DNA of 29,103 nt from the IMG/VR virus record IMGVR_UViG_3300016476_000510, positions 1 to 29,103 of that record; one strand, 5' to 3'. Both the position numbers and the translations under genes were made by a program. The notes under the pieces are model-generated. The model saw only the letters and a program-made list of their open reading frames with translations, was not told where the DNA came from and made no database searches. Of the stretch, positions 1 to 28,622 are shown one piece after another; position 1 is the stretch's first letter; every line of letters begins with the position of its first letter. This stretch comes from a virus (lineage: Duplodnaviria > Caudoviricetes).

Positions 1-116
1 CATTCCCTAACAATCAACTCGGCGAACTTTTCAACCACTTCTTTAGGAACATTCACTGGCTCATAATCACTGTGATAACAAGCCTTGGTAAAAAGTTTTA
101 GTATCGTTCTGTTCAT
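1..116 (-). CDS. Partial (runs off the window edge) copy A of the 'MNERI...KFAELIV...HFGVE' repeat family
   Basis: Hand translation MNRTILKLFTKACYHSDYEPVNVPKEVVEKFAELIVRE; bases 1-34 are identical to 380-413. Confidence 0.85.
   Translation of the reverse strand, partial: MNRTILKLFTKACYHSDYEPVNVPKEVVEKFAELIVRE
10..31. repeat. 22-bp anchor acaatcaactcggcgaactttt, identical at 10-31, 389-410, 23104-23125 and 23519-23540
   Basis: Direct comparison of the four sites. Confidence 0.95.
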
Positions 117-286
117 TTTGTTTCCTCTGCTTTTACTTCAACAATTTCTACAGCCCCAACACTCTTGTACTTCATTGCCATTTCAGCATAGTGATTAGCA
201 ACAAACAATGCTTCATTGTATTGAACCCCTGGGTCAGAATCAAGCACATCAATACGAATTTTTACAGTAATATCAAATTGGTTCAT
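113..286 (-). CDS. Hypothetical protein, 57 aa (MNQFDITVKIR...EETK)
   Basis: Below the ORF-track cutoff; ATGA overlaps at both ends; SD GGAG supplied by the end of the upstream gene. Confidence 0.75.
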   Translation of the reverse strand: MNQFDITVKIRIDVLDSDPGVQYNEALFVANHYAEMAMKYKSVGAVEIVEVKAEETK

Positions 287-519
287 TCTTCAACTCCGAA
301 ATGTTTCTTCAAATCATCAATAGGATGACCGCCATCAAAGTTTTCCATCCTAATGGCATACGGACTTACAATATCAATACATTCCCTAACAATCAACTCG
401 GCGAACTTTTCAATATCTTCTGTAATGGGCAAATGCTCAAGCCGTGAGGTGTAAATCTCACCATCTCGGTGTAATCCAAAGCCAGCCTGTTTAGCAAGTT
501 TTCTAATTCGTTCGTTCAT
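283..519 (-). CDS. Repeat-family protein, copy B
   Basis: MNERIRKLAKQA...EKFAELIVREC...KKHFGVEE; shares three DNA anchors with the copies at 23 kb. Confidence 0.9.
   Translation of the reverse strand: MNERIRKLAKQAGFGLHRDGEIYTSRLEHLPITEDIEKFAELIVRECIDIVSPYAIRMENFDGGHPIDDLKKHFGVEE
289..305. repeat. 17-bp anchor ttcaactccgaaatgtt, identical at 289-305, 22983-22999 and 23407-23423
   Basis: Direct comparison. Confidence 0.95.
504..519. repeat. 16-bp anchor taattcgttcgttcat, identical at 504-519, 23195-23210 and 23643-23658
   Basis: Direct comparison. Confidence 0.95.
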
Positions 520-520
520 C

Positions 521-1540
521 TTACGCTCCTAAAAAGTGTTGCAGGATTTCGTAGTGGTCTTCAAAACATTCTTCGCTTCGGACCTCTGCGATAGGAACCC
601 AACGTGCTTTTTCAGCATCATCACTACCTTTAACTTTAGGCAGTTCACCGTCAGGCAATTCAATGTGGAATGCGTGAGTAATTGTTCTACCACGAGCACT
701 TCGGTCAATAGCATCAAATACACGACTGCGCTTGATGCTACCACGCAACACAGGAGCAGGAACCTTGATGCCAGTTTCTTCGCGAAGTTCGCGGATAGCG
801 GCATCTTCTACACTACGGTCGGTGTTAGCGTTTACAAAGCCGCCTGGCAATGCCCACAAACCCTTACCAGGTTCACTGCGGCGCTTGATCATCAGTACGT
901 GGCCGCTTTGGATAACCACGGCATCAGCAGTGCTGAAGATTGGCGGGTAAGGCAGACTTTCGTATTGCTTTTTGTAGTTAGCAATGAACTCGCGTTCACG
1001 AACAATCTGTTGGAACTCTTCAGTACGGCGGAAGTTCATCAAGAAATCGTAGGTTGTTTCAGGCACCACGTTCTTGATAAAGTTGCTGTTGAAGCTGGTC
1101 TTGAAGTAGAGATCGCGAATGTCAGTAGCGCCCAGTGGTTCAATCTGCTCTACGTTGATGTACTCCCATTGCGGGAACATATCCAGGTAGAAACTAGAAT
1201 CGTCCTTCTTGTGACCAATAATAGCATCCTTGGTGCCAAGGCAACGATACTTGCTGTGGATGCCTTGGACGCGAACTGCCCATGCTTGATCATTATAGAT
1301 AGTGTCAATGTTAGGTTCAACATAGACACGCATACTGAGACCGGCAGTAGCAGCCAGAATCATTTGACGGCGTTCGTCGAATGTAAATGGGTTCTTGTAA
1401 GTGCGTGGTTGATGTGCAGATCCTGCAATAACCACAAGTTGGTCTGTTAGTGCGGTGCAACGCTTGATGATTTCCAAGTGTGCATTGTGCAAGGGCTGAA
1501 AGCGACCGATCAGCAGAATGGTTCCATATGGTTTTGACAT
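521..1540 (-). CDS. nadM: Bifunctional NMN adenylyltransferase / Nudix ADP-ribose pyrophosphatase (NadM-Nudix)
   Basis: N-terminal GRFQPLHNAH nucleotidyltransferase motif and KNPF; Nudix box GG...AAIRELREETG and GSDDA; start moved to MSKPY (1540). Confidence 0.92.
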   Translation of the reverse strand: MSKPYGTILLIGRFQPLHNAHLEIIKRCTALTDQLVVIAGSAHQPRTYKNPFTFDERRQMILAATAGLSMRVYVEPNIDTIYNDQAWAVRVQGIHSKYRCLGTKDAIIGHKKDDSSFYLDMFPQWEYINVEQIEPLGATDIRDLYFKTSFNSNFIKNVVPETTYDFLMNFRRTEEFQQIVREREFIANYKKQYESLPYPPIFSTADAVVIQSGHVLMIKRRSEPGKGLWALPGGFVNANTDRSVEDAAIRELREETGIKVPAPVLRGSIKRSRVFDAIDRSARGRTITHAFHIELPDGELPKVKGSDDAEKARWVPIAEVRSEECFEDHYEILQHFLGA

Positions 1541-1541
1541 T

Positions 1542-1868
1542 TTAGTGACCCCTAATAACTTTGAACATGGCCAGGGCAGATTCAACTCGAATGCCCTCTT
1601 CTTTGCAACTATGCATCAGTTTGCGAGCACGACCAAGGTACTCGCCGTGTGCGTGGCCTGTCCAGTCGTCTTTTTTGTTCTTAAACTCGTAGTACCAACC
1701 ACAACCATCAGTGTGGTTCCAGGTACAGAGCATACCGTGTAGCTCTTTGGCGAGCTGTTCTTCTGGGGATTCCATTTTGGCTGTTTCAAGCTCTTTCTCG
1801 AGCTTGGCCAAATCAGCTTTATGCTGTTTGATTTTTTCTTCGATGCCGAAGATTGTTAAGTCTGACAT
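1542..1868 (-). CDS. Hypothetical protein with N-terminal coiled coil and a His/Cys motif (HGMLCTWNHTDGC)
   Basis: ORF with SD AAGGA; abuts nadM. Confidence 0.8.
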   Translation of the reverse strand: MSDLTIFGIEEKIKQHKADLAKLEKELETAKMESPEEQLAKELHGMLCTWNHTDGCGWYYEFKNKKDDWTGHAHGEYLGRARKLMHSCKEEGIRVESALAMFKVIRGH

Positions 1869-5572: not shown

Positions 5573-6064
5573 TTATAACCATTCATTTTTGAATGGTATC
5601 ATGTTAAATGTATCTTTTGATTTACATTTATTGTGATTCCTACCAAGGAATGCATCTTCCGTCATCTTCGCGCCGCAAATAGAACATTGAAACCATTTAG
5701 ATTTCCTGCTATATTCCAATAGTTCTTCGTCGCTTGCAAACGACATTGGTTTTGATCTTAATATTTTATTACCCGAACTATCCACAGGATATTCACCACC
5801 ACCGCGCTCGAGTCTACAGTTTGCCCAGTCTTTAGAACTTACAATATCAAACTCTATAGATTTTTCAATACAAGTTTTTGAAAAATCTTCGATGTTGTCG
5901 GACTCATATAAGAGATCAGTGGACCATGTTCTACCATGTTCCTCTAGATGCTTTTTCCATTGTTTACCTGAACCCGTATACCTATGATAATCTGACCTGG
6001 TAGTAACACACAGATATTTTAATCCTGTCACCATATGGGTCTTGATCATCAACTTGTATTTCAT
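5573..6064 (-). CDS. Putative GIY-YIG-like (homing) endonuclease with C-terminal Cys/His finger
   Basis: TGLKYLC...YTGSGKQWKKHL pattern typical of phage Seg-like proteins; CSIC...HNKC. Confidence 0.55.
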   Translation of the reverse strand: MKYKLMIKTHMVTGLKYLCVTTRSDYHRYTGSGKQWKKHLEEHGRTWSTDLLYESDNIEDFSKTCIEKSIEFDIVSSKDWANCRLERGGGEYPVDSSGNKILRSKPMSFASDEELLEYSRKSKWFQCSICGAKMTEDAFLGRNHNKCKSKDTFNMIPFKNEWL

Positions 6065-6414
6065 CTCTGCGCTCTGCAATTTGGGCAAATTAGTGCTAAA
6101 TTTGTTTCCTCATTATTATGAGTATTGTGGTCCCAATGACCTACGACTAGTGGTATATCCTCGCCTTGCCATTCAGTACCCCCGCAAATTTCACATTTGT
6201 GACCTCTTATGCCTATCAGGTATTTTTTCACATACTCGGGGACCTGGCGCCAAGCCGTTTTTGTTTCGTTTTGTTTCCACTCGTTTACTAAATTCCTACT
6301 ACGGTGTTCGGCCTGGCACTTATTATTGCAATATTTTGCCAATATCCCGCCGGACTTAACTGGATTTTGTCTACCGCAATTCAAACATGTAAAACAATAA
6401 TTACCCGAATTCAT
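6061..6414 (-). CDS. HNH-like endonuclease with zinc knuckles
   Basis: CEICG...VVGHWDHNTHNN...NLALICPNCR; the usual final His is Arg. Confidence 0.75.
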   Translation of the reverse strand: MNSGNYCFTCLNCGRQNPVKSGGILAKYCNNKCQAEHRSRNLVNEWKQNETKTAWRQVPEYVKKYLIGIRGHKCEICGGTEWQGEDIPLVVGHWDHNTHNNEETNLALICPNCRAQR

Positions 6415-6513
6415 AATACCTTCTTGCAAAGCACTTTATATTACTTAGTGGTTTCAAGTCACAATTATATACGCACTTAATTAGAAATCAAGTGATTTTG
6501 GTAAAATTAGTTC

Positions 6514-7150: not shown

Positions 7151-7495
7151 TTACTTTCTCTTAGACTTTTTTGTTTGGTGCGTCTGGCGGGAGTCGAACC
7201 CGCTACCAAGAGTTTTAGAGGCTCCGTCTATCCGATCAGCTTCAGACGCAAAATCTTTTAGATATCCTTTGATATCTTTGTGCTTTACAATTATAAGCGT
7301 TCTAACGTTATTGTCAACCTTAATTGGCAAATCTAGCATAACGCTAATACGTGGTCCTTCTTCTTCACTGATCAAGGTGTCGTTACCCACAGTGCCAATG
7401 AAGGGAATCTTCTTGTAGAAACCAAAGACCCTATCGCCAATAAAATATTTTGGCTTGTAGCGATTCTTTTCGAACCATTCAGCGAGACTAGCCAT
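7151..7495 (-). CDS. Hypothetical protein whose last ~32 codons run through the tRNA
   Basis: Open frame, TAATG-coupled to the upstream gene. Confidence 0.8.
   Translation of the reverse strand: MASLAEWFEKNRYKPKYFIGDRVFGFYKKIPFIGTVGNDTLISEEEGPRISVMLDLPIKVDNNVRTLIIVKHKDIKGYLKDFASEADRIDGASKTLGSGFDSRQTHQTKKSKRK
7176..7249 (-). tRNA. tRNA with CUA anticodon (amber suppressor-type), CCA encoded, atypical D arm
   Basis: Acceptor GCGTCTG/CAGACGC-A-CCA; T arm GCGGG-TTCGACT-CCCGC; anticodon arm GGAGC-CTCTAAA-ACTCT with CTA at 7216-7218; A at position 8 and a C:A mismatch closing the loop. Confidence 0.8.
7290..7317 (-). promoter_or_regulatory. Intragenic sigma70 promoter TTGACA-16-TATAAT upstream of the tRNA
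   Basis: Both hexamers are perfect; -10 lies 40 nt before tRNA G1. Confidence 0.7.
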
Positions 7496-9058: not shown

Positions 9059-9356
9059 AAGTCGCCCTTATCATCCTAATCAACTGTTCACATGCAACAT
9101 CGTTCATTGCAAGTGTAATAGAACCAAACCCATCTCCAGACATAACCGTCAAAGTTGTCATGCCATCGTCCCTGCGACCTATACGGTAACATTCTTTAGC
9201 CGAGGGCTTGGGAGGTTGCACAGGGGGCACCGGGGGCACCGATCTTGGCTCAGGAAACTTAATCACGTTGTCAGTCTCATCAGGGGGAGGAATATCTTTC
9301 CATGTTGGATCGCTTTCCTTGCGCTTACCCTTGAATAGATCAAAGATGTTTTTCAT
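9030..9356 (-). CDS. Hypothetical Pro-rich protein
   Basis: ORF coupled by TGATG. Confidence 0.75.
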   Translation of the reverse strand: MKNIFDLFKGKRKESDPTWKDIPPPDETDNVIKFPEPRSVPPVPPVQPPKPSAKECYRIGRRDDGMTTLTVMSGDGFGSITLAMNDVACEQLIRMIRATYDDGTESAS

Positions 9357-9637
9357 CAGTTACTCCCAAAGCTACCTGGCTTACCGGGTTCAGGATTACC
9401 GTGGCATCGAACACCTTTACCAAACTCATCCAGAATCTGTCGTGCTTGACCACGCTCCCCAACCACAAACTTGTAGCCTTCAATACAACGGCTTTCCGTC
9501 ATACCATTGATGCCCCAGCTAACGCTAGTGTTACCTTGGCTCGTTCCAAACAGAATAGGAGCAACGATAGCCGCAAGGATACCAACAATGGCGACGACGA
9601 TCATAAGTTCAATAAGAGTAAAGCCACGTTGCTTCAT
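9356..9637 (-). CDS. Type IV pilin-like protein (class III signal peptide)
   Basis: MKQRG|FTLIELMIVVAIVGILAAIVAP with E5 and P22; two Cys in a short C-terminal domain; SD GGAG. Confidence 0.88.
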   Translation of the reverse strand: MKQRGFTLIELMIVVAIVGILAAIVAPILFGTSQGNTSVSWGINGMTESRCIEGYKFVVGERGQARQILDEFGKGVRCHGNPEPGKPGSFGSN

Positions 9638-9834
9638 TTGATTCTCCAGAAAGGTGTACCACGCACTAGTTTGGGAACGGGAAATAAAACTGGAATGCAC
9701 AGGCTTAGTAACCAGATCAGCTGAATGTATTCAGCCTGTGCAAATCTATAGATAAACAAGTTGACCAAGCCCGCAACAAGATACACTGCTCCTGTTAGGA
9801 AGAGATACTCGCCGGGGCTCAGTGGCAACCGCAT
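9634..9834 (-). CDS. Small two-helix membrane protein
   Basis: Two hydrophobic stretches. Confidence 0.7.
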   Translation of the reverse strand: MRLPLSPGEYLFLTGAVYLVAGLVNLFIYRFAQAEYIQLIWLLSLCIPVLFPVPKLVRGTPFWRIK

Positions 9835-12964: not shown

Positions 12965-13714
12965 TTATGACTCCAAAACGTAGTCGACACTATTCCTCTT
13001 GCCTGCAAGAACTTGTGCCAGCTGTTCGTGCCCAACAACACGAGCCATACCAGGCCAGTCTGCTGCAAACATACGGAAGTCATAGCCAAAGCTCTGAACG
13101 TGGCACTTGTACTTTTCACTGTAGCGCATGCCACCACCGCCGCCGGTGCCGCTGTATGCACGAACACGACTGGTACCAAAGCTATCGCGGAACAGGTCAC
13201 TACCTAGGTAGATGCCATCCCATTCTTTAGGCCAGCGAACAATCCATTCAACACGGCCACTCCAGCCCGGGTAGCTTCGGGGGCGACCGTCTTTGGCTTC
13301 CTGGCTACTCCAGCAGGTGACACCGTTATGCGGGCGACTGTGGCTGTTGCTGACCGTTGGGTTCCAACGAACATCGAAAGTGGTAAACTCTAGAAGTTCA
13401 GGAACAGGACAATGCACGGCATTTTTTCCTCGGCTGTGCGTCTTGCCGACATACTTCCAGTCAAAGGGATCAGTCTTAGCAGCTTCTGCCCAGAAACGAC
13501 TTTGATTGTCAATGACAAACTGACGCCATTCATCAATGGTCATTTCACGCTCATAGGCCTGTGCCCACCAGGCATCAGCCTCTGCTTCCTTGACCATTAG
13601 CTTGCGCTTGGTGTTTCGCTCGCGGGCTAGCTTACGCAGATGACTCTGGTACTTGACCTTATCCTCGAACAGTTTACCCGTTTCGTCACATTTCCAAACT
13701 AGAATTTGACTCAT
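12965..13714 (-). CDS. Hypothetical protein
   Basis: 249-aa ORF, TAATG-coupled. Confidence 0.85.
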   Translation of the reverse strand: MSQILVWKCDETGKLFEDKVKYQSHLRKLARERNTKRKLMVKEAEADAWWAQAYEREMTIDEWRQFVIDNQSRFWAEAAKTDPFDWKYVGKTHSRGKNAVHCPVPELLEFTTFDVRWNPTVSNSHSRPHNGVTCWSSQEAKDGRPRSYPGWSGRVEWIVRWPKEWDGIYLGSDLFRDSFGTSRVRAYSGTGGGGGMRYSEKYKCHVQSFGYDFRMFAADWPGMARVVGHEQLAQVLAGKRNSVDYVLES

Positions 13715-13968
13715 TATTCTACCTCAAAGAAAATACGTTCACCCAGAGCACTGATACGACGAATCTTGCGACCGTTGATCGTCATGCCAAGTGCAATAAA
13801 AGGACCTCCGCTGGGGTCGACAAAACCTAGGTCATTAAAGTCCACACTTTCTTGTCCTTCTTTGCCACCATAGCGCCAGTACTTCAGATCACCCTCGATC
13901 GTAAAAGAGTCTTGATCTACCTCTACAAACTTATATTCATCGCCATAACGATTTTTCATATCTATCAT
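13714..13968 (-). CDS. Hypothetical protein (FVDPSGGPF motif)
   Basis: ORF in the operon. Confidence 0.8.
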   Translation of the reverse strand: MIDMKNRYGDEYKFVEVDQDSFTIEGDLKYWRYGGKEGQESVDFNDLGFVDPSGGPFIALGMTINGRKIRRISALGERIFFEVE

Positions 13969-20991: not shown

Positions 20992-21535
20992 GATGTCCCT
21001 TAATTTCGCCTTTGAGTGCCTGAGCAATCATAAGATCAAGCTCTTGCACGATAAAACCAGTCGCGTCCATGCCTACGTCACGAGCGCGAAACTTTTCAAG
21101 ACCACTCACGCCACCATGCAGGTGTCCGTGAAAGTGTACTGCACCACGATGCATTTGATCCCATTCAGCAATAGGATAGTGAAACATCACCACCTTAGTG
21201 CCGTTGACATTGATGTCAAGGTACTTGTGTACTTCTGCAAAGCAGGAACGGAAATCCTCATCCTTCAAGAGCTTGCGATCGTGATTTCCTTCAATCAAAA
21301 TCTTAGTGCCGTTTAGGCGATCCATGATGGCGATTGCCTTGTCTGCTGGCAGAAATGCAACGTCGCCCAGAATGTAAACAGTGTCCTCAGGACAAACCAT
21401 GTCGTTCCATTCCTTGATCATGGCCTCGTTCATGTAGGCAACATCGTTACGGAAACGAGCACGGGTTACTGGGCAGAACTTCATAATGTTCGCATGCCCA
21501 AAATGGAGATCGCTAGTGATATATGTCTTAGTCAT
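20984..21535 (-). CDS. Calcineurin-like metallophosphoesterase
   Basis: DLHFGH, LGD, GNHD, HYP and HGHLH. Confidence 0.9.
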   Translation of the reverse strand: MTKTYITSDLHFGHANIMKFCPVTRARFRNDVAYMNEAMIKEWNDMVCPEDTVYILGDVAFLPADKAIAIMDRLNGTKILIEGNHDRKLLKDEDFRSCFAEVHKYLDINVNGTKVVMFHYPIAEWDQMHRGAVHFHGHLHGGVSGLEKFRARDVGMDATGFIVQELDLMIAQALKGEIKGHHA

Positions 21536-21542
21536 AAAACAT

Positions 21543-21571
21543 ATTATAACACTAGCGAGAATTTAGGTCAA
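21543..21571 (-). promoter_or_regulatory. Sigma70 promoter TTGACC-17-TATAAT, 7 nt from the ATG
   Basis: Near consensus; no room for an SD. Confidence 0.8.
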
Positions 21572-21581
21572 TTATTGACTA

Positions 21582-21659
21582 TTATTGTGGTAGTGACCAC
21601 TGGCTCATGCTCTGTTCGTCGGGGACGAAAGGCACCCAGTCTGCAGGTACGTCGATCAT
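21582..21659 (-). CDS. Possible 25-aa peptide (MIDVPADWVPFVPDE...)
   Basis: ATGA overlap and SD GGAG; coincides with a long hairpin. Confidence 0.4.
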   Translation of the reverse strand: MIDVPADWVPFVPDEQSMSQWSLPQ

Positions 21660-21997
21660 TTCTTCTCCAGTTCCTTGATGGTTTCTGTGATAGCATGCGC
21701 GAAGTTGATAGCGCTCTGCTTGTTCAAGAGCATGTGATGCTCTTGTTTGTGTACACCCTTGAACAGGATGTCATATACTGCACGAAGCCTTGCTGGCCAA
21801 TCTTTCCAGAACTCTTTGGTCCAGGTTGTAACGTAGAAGCTGACCTCTACATCAGGAATGTCTGCATCTCGCTGAACTTCAATCCACATGTGGACTGCAT
21901 GGTCATCGCTTGAGCAATCACACTCCACCTTGAAGTTCTTGCTGTCGCCGTAGTCGCCTTGCAGCGTTATACCTTGAGCAGGCTTCTGTGGTTTCAC
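21656..21997 (-). CDS. Hypothetical protein (CDC...H motif)
   Basis: GTGA overlap. Confidence 0.8.
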   Translation of the reverse strand: MKPQKPAQGITLQGDYGDSKNFKVECDCSSDDHAVHMWIEVQRDADIPDVEVSFYVTTWTKEFWKDWPARLRAVYDILFKGVHKQEHHMLLNKQSAINFAHAITETIKELEKK

Positions 21998-22281
21998 TGT
22001 AGAGTCCTCTTTGGAGCTTCTGGCAGTTCGTCTAGACCGTCAACGTCTTCAAGATCAATGCCAAGTGCCTTTGCAAGAATCATGGCTTCCTCGGGATCCA
22101 TAGTTTCCAGATCAACCGGGCGTGCCTTCTCGAACAGTTCACCAGAAGTGACCAGTCGATTGATTTCTGCCATCAGCTCGTCTAGCTCTTCTTGTGTACC
22201 TTCGAAGTTGTCAAAACAGCCTTCGGCAAAAACGATTTTCACATTTTCCGGATGCTCGGGCTTTTCAATTTCGTCAGTCAT
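21994..22281 (-). CDS. Hypothetical acidic protein
   Basis: SD AAGGA; extended -10 at 22303-22311. Confidence 0.8.
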   Translation of the reverse strand: MTDEIEKPEHPENVKIVFAEGCFDNFEGTQEELDELMAEINRLVTSGELFEKARPVDLETMDPEEAMILAKALGIDLEDVDGLDELPEAPKRTLQ

Positions 22282-22312
22282 CGTGTTTCCTTAGTGTGCT
22301 TTATTATAGCAC

Positions 22313-22537
22313 TTAACGGCGTTTACGCCAAGTGTATTCTTCACCATTTGGCAAAACTCCTTCGGTGATAGAATCAACACCGGGCTTGCCAACGCAGTTG
22401 GGGTCTTCGCTGACCATGGTCACAAAGGTGTTGCCTTCACGGCGAAGTTCCTCTGTCATCTTCAATGCCTTGGTTAGGCCCATTACATACAGTGCCTGTG
22501 CCTTGCCGTCATCATCTGTCCAATAAACTCTAAACAA
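22313..22537 (-). CDS. Hypothetical protein
   Basis: Likely TTG start (FRVYW) after GAAGGA. Confidence 0.7.
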   Translation of the reverse strand: MFRVYWTDDDGKAQALYVMGLTKALKMTEELRREGNTFVTMVSEDPNCVGKPGVDSITEGVLPNGEEYTWRKRR

Positions 22538-22895
22538 TCGTTCCTTCTTTCTCTGTATGATCCTTTGCCAGCTCGCGTAGCATGCGAGCGTGGCGGTAAT
22601 CGTTTTCCTTCTTTGTGCGCTTCTTGTCATCGCTTAGGCGCAACATCATGTCGTAGTTACGTGCCCACTCAACACCAATCAGCCAGATCTTAATTTGCTC
22701 AAGTGTGCCAGTGAACAGTTCTGCATCACGAGCGTAAATGGGCAAGCTATCTTGATCCTTGGGCTTTACGCCTGCGCGATCGCTGTAGTCATCACCACCC
22801 CAGCCGCCATGCTTGGGTGCGCTCAACATCAAACCAAGTTTGTCAAGATCGGCTTCCAGACGCCGCAGTCCCAGAACACTTTGATAGCCAGCCAT
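22530..22895 (-). CDS. Hypothetical protein (ends in TAG)
   Basis: Start moved to MAGYQ. Confidence 0.8.
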   Translation of the reverse strand: MAGYQSVLGLRRLEADLDKLGLMLSAPKHGGWGGDDYSDRAGVKPKDQDSLPIYARDAELFTGTLEQIKIWLIGVEWARNYDMMLRLSDDKKRTKKENDYRHARMLRELAKDHTEKEGTIV

Positions 22896-22896
22896 T

Positions 22897-22980
22897 TTAA
22901 AACCCATCCTTAATAAGAATTGCCAGGCCCATGATAATCACAGGCATTAGCACGATACACAAATTTACGATAGCGGTCAT
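22897..22980 (-). CDS. 27-aa hydrophobic peptide
   Basis: MTAIVNLCIVLMPVIIMGLAILIKDGF; started by the ATGA of repeat copy C. Confidence 0.6.
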   Translation of the reverse strand: MTAIVNLCIVLMPVIIMGLAILIKDGF

Positions 22981-23210
22981 AGTTCAACTCCGAAATGTTT
23001 CTTGATAAATTCAGATGGAACCAGATCCAGTCGTTTCACCCTCAGAGGATTAGGTGTGTTCTTTTCAAATTGATACTGATCCGCTAACAATCCACATTCT
23101 TTCACAATCAACTCGGCGAACTTTTGTTCATCAAGTTCTTCAGTCACATAATTACCATTCCAAGTGTATGATGTAGCCTGTTCTTTAAGTTTTTTAATTC
23201 GTTCGTTCAT
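22977..23210 (-). CDS. Repeat-family protein, copy C
   Basis: MNERIKKLKEQA...KFAELIVKEC...KKHFGVEL. Confidence 0.9.
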   Translation of the reverse strand: MNERIKKLKEQATSYTWNGNYVTEELDEQKFAELIVKECGLLADQYQFEKNTPNPLRVKRLDLVPSEFIKKHFGVEL

Positions 23211-23404
23211 TATTGATCTCCAATAACATCCAGTGCTTCATCAAAATCAGCAGTTGATTCTGTCCACTCTTTGTGAACAGAATGAATAATGAACCCAGCA
23301 TCAATTCGCTCTTTGATGAATTTTGACGCATCAGTCCACTTGGTGAAAATCTTTTGGTTATATGGAACATTACCATACCAAACTGAATACACAAACTTTT
23401 TCAT
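23210..23404 (-). CDS. Hypothetical protein sandwiched between repeat copies D and C
   Basis: ATGA and TAATG overlaps. Confidence 0.75.
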   Translation of the reverse strand: MKKFVYSVWYGNVPYNQKIFTKWTDASKFIKERIDAGFIIHSVHKEWTESTADFDEALDVIGDQ

Positions 23405-23661
23405 TCTTCAACTCCGAAATGTTGTTTTACAGATTGTTTGATATGTTCAATCAAAGCCCGATCCCGATCAGTTTGGAACACTTCTGTGTGTGCGTCAGTA
23501 ATGTCCAACATTTGACGAACAATCAACTCGGCGAACTTTTCCAAGTCTACTGAATGAAGTGTAACTGCATTTTCTGGTTTCTTTTCACCACGATAGTAAG
23601 CATAACTCAATTCGTTAGCATTAGCCTGTAGAGCAAGTTCTTTAATTCGTTCGTTCATCAT
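23401..23661 (-). CDS. Repeat-family protein, copy D
   Basis: MMNERIKELALQA...EKFAELIVRQ...KQHFGVEE. Confidence 0.9.
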   Translation of the reverse strand: MMNERIKELALQANANELSYAYYRGEKKPENAVTLHSVDLEKFAELIVRQMLDITDAHTEVFQTDRDRALIEHIKQSVKQHFGVEE

Positions 23662-23715
23662 TCCAATTCTCCTGTAATATCGTTGACCCGACCAAGGTAG
23701 ACAGCCTGCTTTATA

Positions 23716-24039
23716 TTACCAACTAATTTGGATACCGTAGTTTGTATGTGAGGGGCCATTGCCATCATCGTCAGCAAGTCCTCGGGGAACATAACTCTCA
23801 CCGTCTCGTTGAAAGACAACCTTGTAACCTAACTTCTTGAGTTCTTCCATTGCGGCTTTTTGGATATTATCGGGCTGAACATTATGATAAACTGGTTCGG
23901 CACCTAGGCAGATGAACACAAATCGTTTTCCGCTTTCAGCCGCGTCTTTGACTTTCTTCTCAACAGTATGTGTAAGGAACGTCTGTACCTCTACACCGCT
24001 CTCATCGTAGAGTTGTTTGGCTTGTTTTGCGTCAATCAT
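23716..24039 (-). CDS. Hypothetical protein
   Basis: 107-aa ORF. Confidence 0.8.
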   Translation of the reverse strand: MIDAKQAKQLYDESGVEVQTFLTHTVEKKVKDAAESGKRFVFICLGAEPVYHNVQPDNIQKAAMEELKKLGYKVVFQRDGESYVPRGLADDDGNGPSHTNYGIQISW

Positions 24040-24114
24040 TTTGTAACCTTACTCAAGTTGACCTCGCCGTCGACCACGGGGTGGACTTGAACGATGTGTT
24101 TGTATGTGGTCACA

Positions 24115-24327
24115 TCATTCTCCTCGGATTTGAACAATGACTCGCCCGGCCTGCGAATAATCCTTGTATTCCTCGCTGGTGTAGTCAAAGACATAGCATT
24201 CTTCGATGTCTACAGGCTTCATGGTCATGTAGATGTCGTAGCCTTTGATCACTTCAACACCGCATTCTACTTCAGCGTCTTGAGGGAGTGTCTTCATCCA
24301 CTCAATCATTTGAGCTACAGTAGTCAT
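24115..24327 (-). CDS. Hypothetical protein (TVAQMIEWMKTLPQDAEV)
   Basis: ORF in the operon. Confidence 0.8.
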   Translation of the reverse strand: MTTVAQMIEWMKTLPQDAEVECGVEVIKGYDIYMTMKPVDIEECYVFDYTSEEYKDYSQAGRVIVQIRGE

Positions 24328-24328
24328 T

Positions 24329-24442
24329 TCAACGATCCTTCATACGCTTCATGATAGCGATGAACCAGTGCTCTTTGAGGACACGCTGGAACTCGACTTC
24401 GGGATCGTATTGACGACCAGTTTTCCTGCAAGTAACCAACAT
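24329..24442 (-). CDS. Small protein, 37 aa
   Basis: Hand translation MLVTCRKTGRQYDPE...KRMKDR; SD AGGAG. Confidence 0.7.
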   Translation of the reverse strand: MLVTCRKTGRQYDPEVEFQRVLKEHWFIAIMKRMKDR

Positions 24443-24474
24443 GTTCAACTCCTGTTTTGTTTCGCTATGTAACT

Positions 24475-24519
24475 ATTATAACACCGAAACGAATTTCGTG
24501 CTATTTTTGGCTATTTTGG
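24475..24519 (-). promoter_or_regulatory. Early promoter AAAATAGCCAAAAA-TAGCAC-17-TATAAT
   Basis: Extended -10; upstream tandem AAAATAG. Confidence 0.75.
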
Positions 24520-24702
24520 CATGTTTTCCAGTGCCTTCTTCCTAGTCTTGTAGGGGCCGGAAACCACGTCGTAGCCATGCTCTGCACAGTACTCAGGGAA
24601 CGTTTGGCGCCCTGGAACGTAACTGGCATTCTCTGCCCAGCGAATGGGCTCATAGATCCCGTCACGCTCAACGACAAACCAAATAAAACGTAGGTAGATC
24701 AT
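24511..24702 (-). CDS. Hypothetical protein (ends in TAG)
   Basis: SD AAGGA. Confidence 0.7.
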   Translation of the reverse strand: MIYLRFIWFVVERDGIYEPIRWAENASYVPGRQTFPEYCAEHGYDVVSGPYKTRKKALENMPK

Positions 24703-24711
24703 TACAGTTCC

Positions 24712-25029
24712 TTACAGGGTGTTCAGAACAGGATTGTGCACTCGAGTAAGCTCGCGCTCACGTGCATGCGCTGCCGCTTTACCACGCACAGTCTCAACCA
24801 CACCGTAGGTAAAAGACTCAACACCGTGCTCACGAATGCTACGGCACAGGGCCCAATCCTTGTTCTCAGTCAGTGCACGGCGAACGTGCTTTTGGATGCG
24901 AATTTTGAGTGCTTTACGCAGGTTGCCCGAGCAAACTGTAACACCAATGTATTGCTCTGCGGTCACCACGTTGGTGATCACATAGATTGCATGATTGCGG
25001 TCACTGCGGGTTTTGCGTTTCGTCGTCAT
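24712..25029 (-). CDS. Stand-alone GIY-YIG nuclease domain protein
   Basis: AIYVITN...QYIGVT...RIQKH...E...N. Confidence 0.8.
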   Translation of the reverse strand: MTTKRKTRSDRNHAIYVITNVVTAEQYIGVTVCSGNLRKALKIRIQKHVRRALTENKDWALCRSIREHGVESFTYGVVETVRGKAAAHARERELTRVHNPVLNTL

Positions 25030-25035
25030 GTATCA

Positions 25036-25078
25036 ATTATAACACGACAGCGAATTTTTGCCTATTTTTGGCTATTTT
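25036..25078 (-). promoter_or_regulatory. Early promoter AAAATAGCCAAAAA-TAGGCA-17-TATAAT, 6 nt from the ATG
   Basis: Extended -10; same upstream element as 24475. Confidence 0.75.
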
Positions 25079-25484
25079 CGGTAGCCCAGTCATGCTGCGG
25101 GTTTACATCGTACTCTATTACCGAATATGCTACCACACTGGTATCAGTATCCGATAATGATATATGACAACGTGCCCTTAATGATTCTATAGTTTGCCTT
25201 AATTTATCATTAAAACAAACGACTGGTTTTCCATTTGTATTATGTCTAATTTCGATACTCTTAAATCGAGTATCTCCCTGAATACCTGTACCAAATGCTT
25301 TTGCAACTGCTTCTTTTGCAGCCCATTTTTTAGCAAGGTATAATGATTTTAATTCATCAATATTAGCAAAATATTCTTCTAATTCAAAATCAGTGCAAAT
25401 ACGTTTTGCTAGATTATCCATATGTGTTCTAGAGTTTCTAAAACGCTCTATGTCCACAATATCGGTACCAATACCAAGAATCAT
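25062..25484 (-). CDS. acpS: Holo-[acyl-carrier-protein] synthase (4'-phosphopantetheinyl transferase)
   Basis: ILGIGTDIVDIERF, WAAKEAVAKAFGTG, GKP and ISLSD. Confidence 0.92.
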   Translation of the reverse strand: MILGIGTDIVDIERFRNSRTHMDNLAKRICTDFELEEYFANIDELKSLYLAKKWAAKEAVAKAFGTGIQGDTRFKSIEIRHNTNGKPVVCFNDKLRQTIESLRARCHISLSDTDTSVVAYSVIEYDVNPQHDWATENSQK

Positions 25485-27496: not shown

Positions 27497-27856
27497 TAGA
27501 TCACCCTTGTTTCGCTGAGCCAAAACAAGAAGGAATCTGTATTCATCATAAGCATTGCGTACTGCCGGGCATTCGTCTCTGATCTTCTTTTCTTCTGCGA
27601 TTATTGCTTCCAGTTTTTCCAGACGCTCACGCAGTTCTTCATAAGGATCAGTCAGTGTAATAGTACCTGAACCACCGACAAGCGAACCCCAGGTGCCATT
27701 CATACCACTGGATGTGTTCAGTGTGACTGATTGTGTGTTCAGAGAACTCAGATCTATGGTGGTGATATCTACAGAGTCTATGGGTTCTGCTGTAATACCC
27801 GTCGCGCCCGACGCCTCCGACCACTCGTAGGAGTATGTCTTGATATCATCACTCAT
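27479..27856 (-). CDS. Hypothetical protein
   Basis: TAATG-coupled to rpsU. Confidence 0.8.
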   Translation of the reverse strand: MSDDIKTYSYEWSEASGATGITAEPIDSVDITTIDLSSLNTQSVTLNTSSGMNGTWGSLVGGSGTITLTDPYEELRERLEKLEAIIAEEKKIRDECPAVRNAYDEYRFLLVLAQRNKGDLLTDNS

Positions 27857-28086
27857 TAGTAGAGCCTTTTAGGTAGTGCTTCTGCTTGTCTCTTTTTCTG
27901 TGCCCTACGAGTCTGTTGGTTCTTGGTCTTGCGGCGTGTAACACTAGGCTTTTCATAGAACTCTTTTTCTCGAAGTTCAACCAGCTTGCCGCTTTCTGTG
28001 ATCTTCTTCTTAAAGGTTCGTATCGCCTTCTCGACGTTATCGTTGTAGACCTCTACGGTCAGACCTCTATTTTTACGTTTACTCAT
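27856..28086 (-). CDS. rpsU: Ribosomal protein bS21
   Basis: VEKAIRTFKKK...ELREKEFYEKPSVTRR...RLY. Confidence 0.92.
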   Translation of the reverse strand: MSKRKNRGLTVEVYNDNVEKAIRTFKKKITESGKLVELREKEFYEKPSVTRRKTKNQQTRRAQKKRQAEALPKRLY

Positions 28087-28622
28087 TTTTGCTTACCTTG
28101 AAAAATAATGGCTGTCAGCCTATTACCCTGCATCTCACTGTTACCTTCAAGTTTAGCTGCCGGTACTTGAGCAAGGATATTTTCAATAATGGTATAGCCA
28201 ATATCCTTGTTGGCCATCTCCCTGCCCCTGAATTTAATGACAATTTTTACCTTGTCACCATCACCCAACCATTCTTGTATATGTTTAATCTTGACACCAA
28301 GATCATGAGAATCAATAGCCGGTCTCAACTGGACTTCTTTGACTTCAATCCTGTTTTCTCGATTGCGGCGATCAATGTCCTTTTGTTTCTTCTGTTGCTC
28401 GTACTTATACTTACCCAGATCACCTATCTTGCATACAGGAGGATTTGTCTGACCATTGATCATGATCAAATCAAGATCACTGTCCTGCGCCATGTTAAGT
28501 GCTTTAAAAAATCCCAGGACTCCGAGGTTTTCGCCGTTTACACCAATTAGGCGAACCTCTCTTGCTCTGATCTCCCTATTAGCTAGAACTCTGTTCTCGT
28601 GTCTTCTTTCGTTTGTTGCCAT
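28083..28622 (-). CDS. infC: Translation initiation factor IF-3
   Basis: NREIRAREVRLIG, PPVCKI, KEVQLRP, KVKIVIKFRGRE. Confidence 0.95.
   Translation of the reverse strand: MATNERRHENRVLANREIRAREVRLIGVNGENLGVLGFFKALNMAQDSDLDLIMINGQTNPPVCKIGDLGKYKYEQQKKQKDIDRRNRENRIEVKEVQLRPAIDSHDLGVKIKHIQEWLGDGDKVKIVIKFRGREMANKDIGYTIIENILAQVPAAKLEGNSEMQGNRLTAIIFQGKQK

Follow-up and report, generated by a model that had tools for sequence, protein, structure and literature searches.

Integron gene cassettes are small genes delimited by repeats, and diversity-generating retroelements are a source of localised protein diversity. In the T4-type phages RB49 and phi1, promoter-early stem-loop (PeSL) cassettes contain intergenic repeats of a promoter and a terminator, which have been proposed as linkers through which ORFans are inserted, deleted or replaced by homologous recombination and for which mini-circles have been demonstrated (PMC2839356, in part). 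In the gp38 adhesins of T-even phages, glycine-rich motifs separate hypervariable segments (PMC3157838, in part). The internal proteins Ip1–3 of T-even phages have a shared constant part, unrelated bodies and variable loci, and each blocks one host defence variant (PMC12373910 and PMC2839356, in part). It is an old question whether phage mosaicism arises through conserved linkers or through random joining followed by selection (PMC2839356).

Here, a family of small phage genes is described from one window, the whole 29,103-nt stretch of the Caudoviricetes record IMGVR_UViG_3300016476_000510 that was analysed, and from its relatives. Judged from sequence comparison, the best explanation is that these multicopy acidic proteins of approximately 76 aa are encoded by genes whose near-fixed coding blocks probably serve as linkers for homologous recombination.

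Four members of the family in the window

The source record is a linear virus contig with an estimated completeness of 8 %, indicating a genome of approximately 360 kb. A Pfam scan covering 46 of the 245 listed ORFs identified homologues of NadM-Nudix, RNA ligase, ClpS, HSP20, ribosomal protein S21 and IF3. No recombinase was found among these 46 ORFs, in agreement with an earlier note on this DNA, made from the letters alone, that none was visible in the window.

Four ORFs (copies A–D) were located on the minus strand where the earlier note had placed them (Table 1), and its description of four copies with base-identical anchors of 22, 16 and 17 nt and a diverged start in copy A was confirmed. 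Every copy has exactly the same 22-nt middle block (M). The 16-nt start block (N) and the 17-nt end block (C) do not vary among the complete copies B, C and D, and the variable segments V1 and V2 lie between the blocks. All 16 repeated 22-mers of the window fall within the N, M and C blocks, and a profile search of the contig returned exactly four family matches, corresponding to copies A–D. Copies A and B share a 34-nt repeat ending at base 1, so the contig end falls inside the M repeat. The C block of copy B continues into a GGAG ribosome-binding motif and an ATGA stop/start overlap, and the heptamer GAGTTGA is common to the M and C blocks, in different frames. The anchors, perfect according to the earlier note, are exact in the complete copies of the window but strongly rather than absolutely conserved across the family: of 91 members that were selected by protein only, 25 have the exact 22-mer.

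Table 1. Positions of the family copies, their conserved blocks and neighbouring features in the window
Feature	Position	Strand	N block	M block	C block	Remarks
Copy A, partial	1..116	-		10..31		Diverged start, segment V1 and middle block; truncated by contig end
Copy B, 78 aa	283..519	-	504..519	389..410	290..306	
Copy C, 77 aa	22977..23210	-	23195..23210	23104..23125	22984..23000	
Copy D, 86 aa	23401..23661	-	23643..23658	23519..23540	23408..23424	
NMN adenylyltransferase/Nudix (NadM-type) gene	521..1549	-				Directly upstream of copy B
57-aa unrelated cargo ORF	113..286	-				Start codon overlaps copy B stop (ATGA)
84-aa unrelated ORF	13714..13968	-				Without any block in the window
27-aa hydrophobic ORF	22897..22980	-				Begins in copy C stop
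64-aa unrelated cargo ORF	23210..23404	-				Between copies D and C
Sigma-70-type promoter-like motif, TATAAT box	24462..24517	-				Repeated motif, ~0.8 kb upstream of copy D

Several further features of the window were recorded. Copy D may be expressed early from the promoter-like motif at 24462..24517. The AT-rich promoter-like motif with its TATAAT box occurs in seven minus-strand copies (11381, 15310, 18995, 21543, 22303, 24475 and 25036), which may constitute another linker family, intergenic and of the PeSL type. The end of the NadM-Nudix gene (521–560) encodes HFLGA followed by GGAG before the next start, loosely like the family C block. The genes for ribosomal protein S21 and IF3 are adjacent (27856–28622), with ClpX-like, HSP20 and ClpS genes nearby, a set typical of huge phages. 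Two ORFs (24712–25029 and 5573–6429) contain motifs that we take, by eye, to resemble those of GIY-YIG and HNH homing endonucleases; neither had a Pfam match at E 1e-4. One tRNA gene (7179–7249, Rfam) overlaps the listed ORF 7151–7495, the product of the ORF at 9356–9700 has, although from a phage, an N-terminal methylation motif like that of type IV pilins, and ORF 22530–22907 as query returned one distant locus.

Family size and distribution

The earlier note had proposed counting the anchors genome-wide and across related phages. Copy B had 1389 homologues among 4866 candidates, many on contigs of approximately 1 kb, and the exact 22-mer was estimated to be present in approximately 1300 stored viral stretches. 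Five long related records of 300–374 kb, four of them at least 90 % complete, were used as genome references, four having been chosen because they carry the family and the fifth because of its NadM gene. All five encode the T4-type gp23 capsid gene, and they had 3, 14, 17, 12 and 3 family matches respectively.

For cultured phages there was one weak match among 50,697 GenBank phage records, and DNA matches to cultured phages, of 27–28 nt, were rejected as chance hits. In the genome collection 19 loci were found, all in metagenome-assembled bins of mixed phyla and mostly on short contigs. These are probably mis-binned phage DNA, and no host was therefore assigned to the family phages. No named family was found for the copies in Pfam, PHROGs, PADLOC or the named Atlas clusters. 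One PHROGs family of unknown function matched at E 0.009, and PADLOC, which does not cover anti-defence function, gave 0 of 64 matches. A literature search, including huge-phage preprints, found no description of the family, which may be listed as a cluster in the supplements of those preprints.

Conservation of silent sites in the blocks

A first set of 317 unique complete members was parsed from 349 loci and the window, and codon usage was determined for 160 members in protein-selected loci. In this 160-member set, CGA made up 134 of 145 arginine codons in the N block against a background of 13 %, GCC and GAG made up 134/158 and 118/140 of the respective codons in the M block (background 20 and 28 %), and GGA made up 150/156 in the C block (background 21 %). 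The codons fixed in the blocks were often rare ones.

The bias introduced by the choice of loci was controlled with 34 members in loci fetched via unrelated neighbour genes. Silent-site fixation also held in these members, with synonymous differences of 0.155, 0.205 and 0.225 for N, M and C respectively. For the NadM control (70 orthologues) the median synonymous difference was 0.525, and the best of 345 windows of eight codons reached 0.32. The synonymous divergence of the anchors, singled out by the earlier note as a check, is thus not that of normally varying coding sequence. Among the 91 protein-only members, M differed at 0.31 of same-residue codons. A highly polymorphic patch of 4 nt lies at M offsets 20–23 (386–389 in copy B) between near-fixed positions, a polymorphism that plain homogenisation does not obviously predict.

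Fixation of rare codons would also be expected if the blocks were kept for regulation at the DNA or RNA level, as a protein-binding, processing or translation signal, with reassortment a by-product of the homology. The ribosome-binding motif and stop/start overlap in the C block fit this explanation, and these translation signals account for part of the conservation of C without recombination; such a role is not apparent for M. No inter-block covariation remained after correction in 1725 tests, the mean folding z was −0.05 across 40 genes, and Rfam found only a tRNA in the window, away from the blocks. Neither a promoter nor a terminator was called on the minus strand at the blocks within 21400–25300. 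A purely regulatory origin of the blocks is therefore considered unlikely.

Reassortment of the variable segments

Segment sharing was determined for 371 unique members (372 parsed, one dropped for a short segment), giving 68,635 pairs; this set comprises members that match all three motifs, leaving out partial or atypical ones, with exact duplicates collapsed. At 80 % identity, 86 pairs shared V1 only, 93 shared V2 only and 4 shared both, the expectation for sharing both under independence being 0.13. Among the best 119 of 1388 homologues of copy B, V1 was common to 34, V2 to 85 and both to none. The V2 of copy D has 89 % identity with the V2 of an L149 gene whose V1 is unrelated, and no sharer of either segment of copy C was found among 316 genes. 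Approximately 300 separate groups were distinguished per position among the 371 genes, bearing out the observation in the earlier note that the segments are unrelated between copies, and Chao1 richness was approximately 1,400 groups for V1 and 1,100 for V2.

Among 316 members, the identity of sharers was approximately 85–90 % across the shared segment and dropped to background right after the block, and segment identities overall formed a continuum down to background. For shared segments, a crude count over 42 and 45 disjoint pairs gave pN/pS values of 0.17 and 0.15. Most of the 434 substitutions counted in 72 close pairs were transitions (150 C/T and 113 A/G), with no adenine bias. V1 and V2 are under purifying selection and represent conserved reusable modules, not fast-mutating spacers.

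The continuum of identities, and the mapping of the blocks to helices in the structural model, would be in keeping with ordinary paralogues that have conserved helices and fast-evolving loops. However, protein constraint cannot freeze silent sites, the segments behave as conserved modules with almost random partners, and the 179 one-segment pairs against 4 both-segment pairs contradict this explanation, which is considered highly improbable.

It is likewise very doubtful that the mosaics arose as chimeras at short repeats during assembly. The data are all metagenome assemblies, the window contig ends inside an M repeat and many homologues lie on contigs of approximately 1 kb, each of which would favour chimeras. 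However, the longest exact run in M was below 21 nt in 121 of the 179 one-segment pairs and reached 31 nt in only two, shared segments were fully identical in only 13 of 90 cases for V1 and 7 of 97 for V2, and identical segment combinations recur on separate contigs (L375/L425, L393/L396 and L418–L421).

All 149 members found in more than one locus had the same flanks, so these loci represent the same or near-identical genomes. In the five long records, whose 49 matches yielded 24 parsed members, none of the 67 pairs within a genome shared a segment, a null result of little power since 0 of 209 pairs between the five genomes shared a segment either. Block likeness was 0.844 for copies in one locus and 0.843 for different loci, so there is no sign of within-genome homogenisation. 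Within-genome gene conversion was not seen, with one shared V2 within a locus. The lack of excess likeness within loci, together with the absence of within-genome sharing, points to exchange between genomes.

Two further sources of segments were considered and rejected. Of 632 segments compared with the masked DNA of the fetched loci, the only search space for capture from other genes, 5 had a hit; four of the hits were in unparsed family members and one was a weak match of 28 nt. For interchange between V1 and V2 there was one weak hit of 22 nt.

Exchange at an orthologous slot, empty sites and cargo genes

The position next to the NadM-Nudix gene was compared across 81 loci, 80 fetched via the NadM gene plus the window. 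The next gene was a family member in 18 of these 81 orthologous loci and one of many different other genes in the rest. L385 and L393 have two differences from the end of NadM through M and are unrelated directly after M, L370 and L375 have V2 in common but a different V1, and in L432 the V1 seen in L375 is followed by the V2 seen in L385. Mosaic combinations and exchanges bounded by the anchors, which the earlier note had proposed looking for among relatives, therefore do occur, including at this single slot.

In L369 and L378, NadM is joined directly to a homologue of ORF 113–286, and copy B is absent from start codon to start codon. More generally, 140 members had foreign genes on both sides and 14 of these had both flanks syntenic elsewhere; a precise start-to-start empty site was found for 8 of the 14, six of them at the NadM slot. 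Across the slot comparisons, the position was occupied by unrelated genes in 78 cases and by other family members in 33, and was empty in 23. The empty sites carry no block, so the first insertion needs another route.

The downstream side was similarly variable. An ATGA stop/start overlap behind a GGAG motif ends 266 of 317 members, and the ORF after ATGA was a family member by strict pattern in 49 and another ORF in 217, some of the latter being diverged members. Homologues of ORF 23210..23404 follow other family genes in L119, L207 and L247, and homologues of ORF 22897..22980 stand directly before family genes in L288 and L276. None of 42 V2 sharers also shared the next gene, so the C block is a breakpoint too.

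In loci partly selected for C, 417 ORFs ended in a C block and 21 of these had a non-family body. A C block was also present just upstream of 14 of the 21, and 7 of the 21 had a tail-free homologue, although one of these 7 resembles a fusion with a degenerate family member. A homologue of ORF 13714..13968 in L448 lies between two C blocks and has a C block as its own tail, whereas the window ORF is one of the tail-free homologues. These foreign small genes tailed with C support the suggestion in the earlier note that the sites capture small genes. At the other end of the gene, unrelated ORFs beginning with the family N block were seen in L314, L333 and L336, and 24 of 398 start blocks had no recognisable M, some of these belonging to diverged members.

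Linkage across the middle block and recombination machinery

From left to right, the linkage of M positions to V1 was 0.78, 0.61, 0.54, 0.23 and 0.20, and that to V2 was −0.07, 0.31, 0.50, 0.24 and 0.83. These values are from 27 and 25 disjoint pairs at 90 % identity (25–42 disjoint pairs overall), and the gradients were flatter at 85 %. In these pairs, the graded linkage is more readily reconciled with crossovers or heteroduplex distributed along the block than with a single cut site. The patch at offsets 20–23 was weakly linked to either side (0.23 and 0.24).

A RecA-family gene was present in all five long related genomes. Searches with Pfam models found no tyrosine recombinase (PF00589) or resolvase (PF00239) in the five genomes, a search by which a recombinase outside these models would be missed, and no reverse transcriptase (PF00078). 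A Chi-like role for GAGTTGA was rejected, the heptamer not being enriched outside genes (134 against 122 expected).

The M block also allows an alternative in which the blocks are recognition sites of a dedicated, undescribed recombinase or nicking enzyme, with cassette exchange as in integrons and shufflons. Position-specific fixation flanking the variable 4-nt patch, the occurrence of GAGTTGA in M and C in different frames and the precise empty sites of 8 of the 14 members with syntenic flanks would all fit recognition by such an enzyme. In the 25–42 disjoint pairs, however, linkage across M is graded with no step, neither PF00589 nor PF00239 has a match in the five genomes, the heptamer lacks enrichment outside genes, and the empty sites have no block while other small genes come and go likewise. 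A dedicated enzyme is regarded as quite unlikely.

Under the preferred explanation, the N, M and C coding blocks would be crossover points for the general homologous recombination of the phages, of the RecA/UvsX type. Module boundaries among relatives coincide with the conserved blocks. Against this explanation, the blocks provide only approximately 20–35 nt of homology. Exchange partners would most likely be co-infecting phages. A crossover at N, M or C would replace V1 or V2 in frame from a pool of approximately 1,100–1,400 variants per position. The ribosome-binding motif and stop/start overlap of the C block would keep genes behind or tailed with C expressed, and such genes could move as C-to-C cassettes. 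Majority-type blocks may be kept because matching blocks give access to the segment pool.

The sequence comparisons themselves establish that silent sites are frozen, that the segments reassort almost freely with breakpoints at the blocks, that empty sites exist and that foreign genes carry the block as a tail. We infer that recombination is the cause, that UvsX-type machinery is the agent and that blocks matching the majority are kept for access to the pool.

Predicted protein structure

The model of copy B (pLDDT 81.6, pTM 0.70) has helices at residues 3–12, 33–56 and 66–74 and a hairpin in V1; the N and C blocks map onto the first and third helices, and the M block lies within the second. 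Together with the reassortment at the blocks, this predicted three-helix arrangement, obtained by the structure prediction that the earlier note had recommended, supports its suggestion of segment swapping on a helical frame. Members of the family are acidic, with a median pI of 4.9 and a median length of 76 aa. Foldseek found no PDB match to the copy B model at E<=0.001, the best structural match by VIA-align had Z 4.3 and rmsd 3.9 over 67 aligned residues, and neighbours in a viral structure library were uncharacterised or unnamed phage proteins. By analogy with the T4 internal proteins, the protein might tentatively be viewed as a three-helix frame, made early, whose two variable surfaces are presented to host proteins, so that the family would act as a counter-defence library.

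Comparison with known systems

The family resembles PeSL cassettes in having short conserved repeats amid small non-essential genes of T4-type phages, no dedicated recombinase having been found (PMC2839356, in part). Whereas PeSLs are intergenic (PMC2839356), each family gene has three linkers, which are protein-coding, include a translation joint and allow half-genes to be swapped in frame, and the blocks have no stem-loop, promoter or terminator call. Segment exchange between conserved motifs is shared with gp38, but gp38 is a tail-tip adhesin of known function, while the family consists of multicopy helical proteins of 76 aa that match no named family (PMC3157838, in part). The family further differs from gp38 in its frozen silent sites and cargo genes; the word 'synonymous' is absent from the main text of PMC3157838. 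The family is placed outside the PeSL and gp38 classes because its repeats are coding and its protein is unrelated.

The internal proteins Ip1–3 suggest, by analogy, what a phage might gain from maintaining a library (PMC12373910, in part). The Ips share only an N-terminal capsid-targeting leader (PMC12373910). In contrast to integrons, the family genomes have no tyrosine recombinase match (0/5) and no structured attC-like site. In contrast to diversity-generating retroelements, there is no reverse transcriptase match (0/5) and no adenine-biased substitution, and pN/pS is 0.15–0.17.

A broader proposal is that freshwater jumbo phages share a population-wide combinatorial library of approximately a million V1 and V2 pairs on one three-helix frame, with joints recognised by a dedicated phage factor, the same joints recruiting foreign small genes into mobile, translation-ready cassettes, and that this library is aimed at host defences. 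We regard this as rather unlikely; if true, such a library would be the phage counterpart of both segment shuffling and integrons.

The family is a large group of so far undescribed proteins whose exchangeable surfaces are under purifying selection, and it offers a short, synthesizable substrate for testing linker-driven exchange. The blocks may also explain assembly breakpoints in these phages, such as the start of the window contig at base 1. As in the linker model of Botstein and Campbell, described in PMC2839356 (in part), the family has short conserved sequences between otherwise different modules, and its module boundaries fall at those conserved sequences. With regard to the two proposed modes of mosaicism, the family shows both, since half-genes reassort at three coding linkers and whole genes come and go at linker-free sites.
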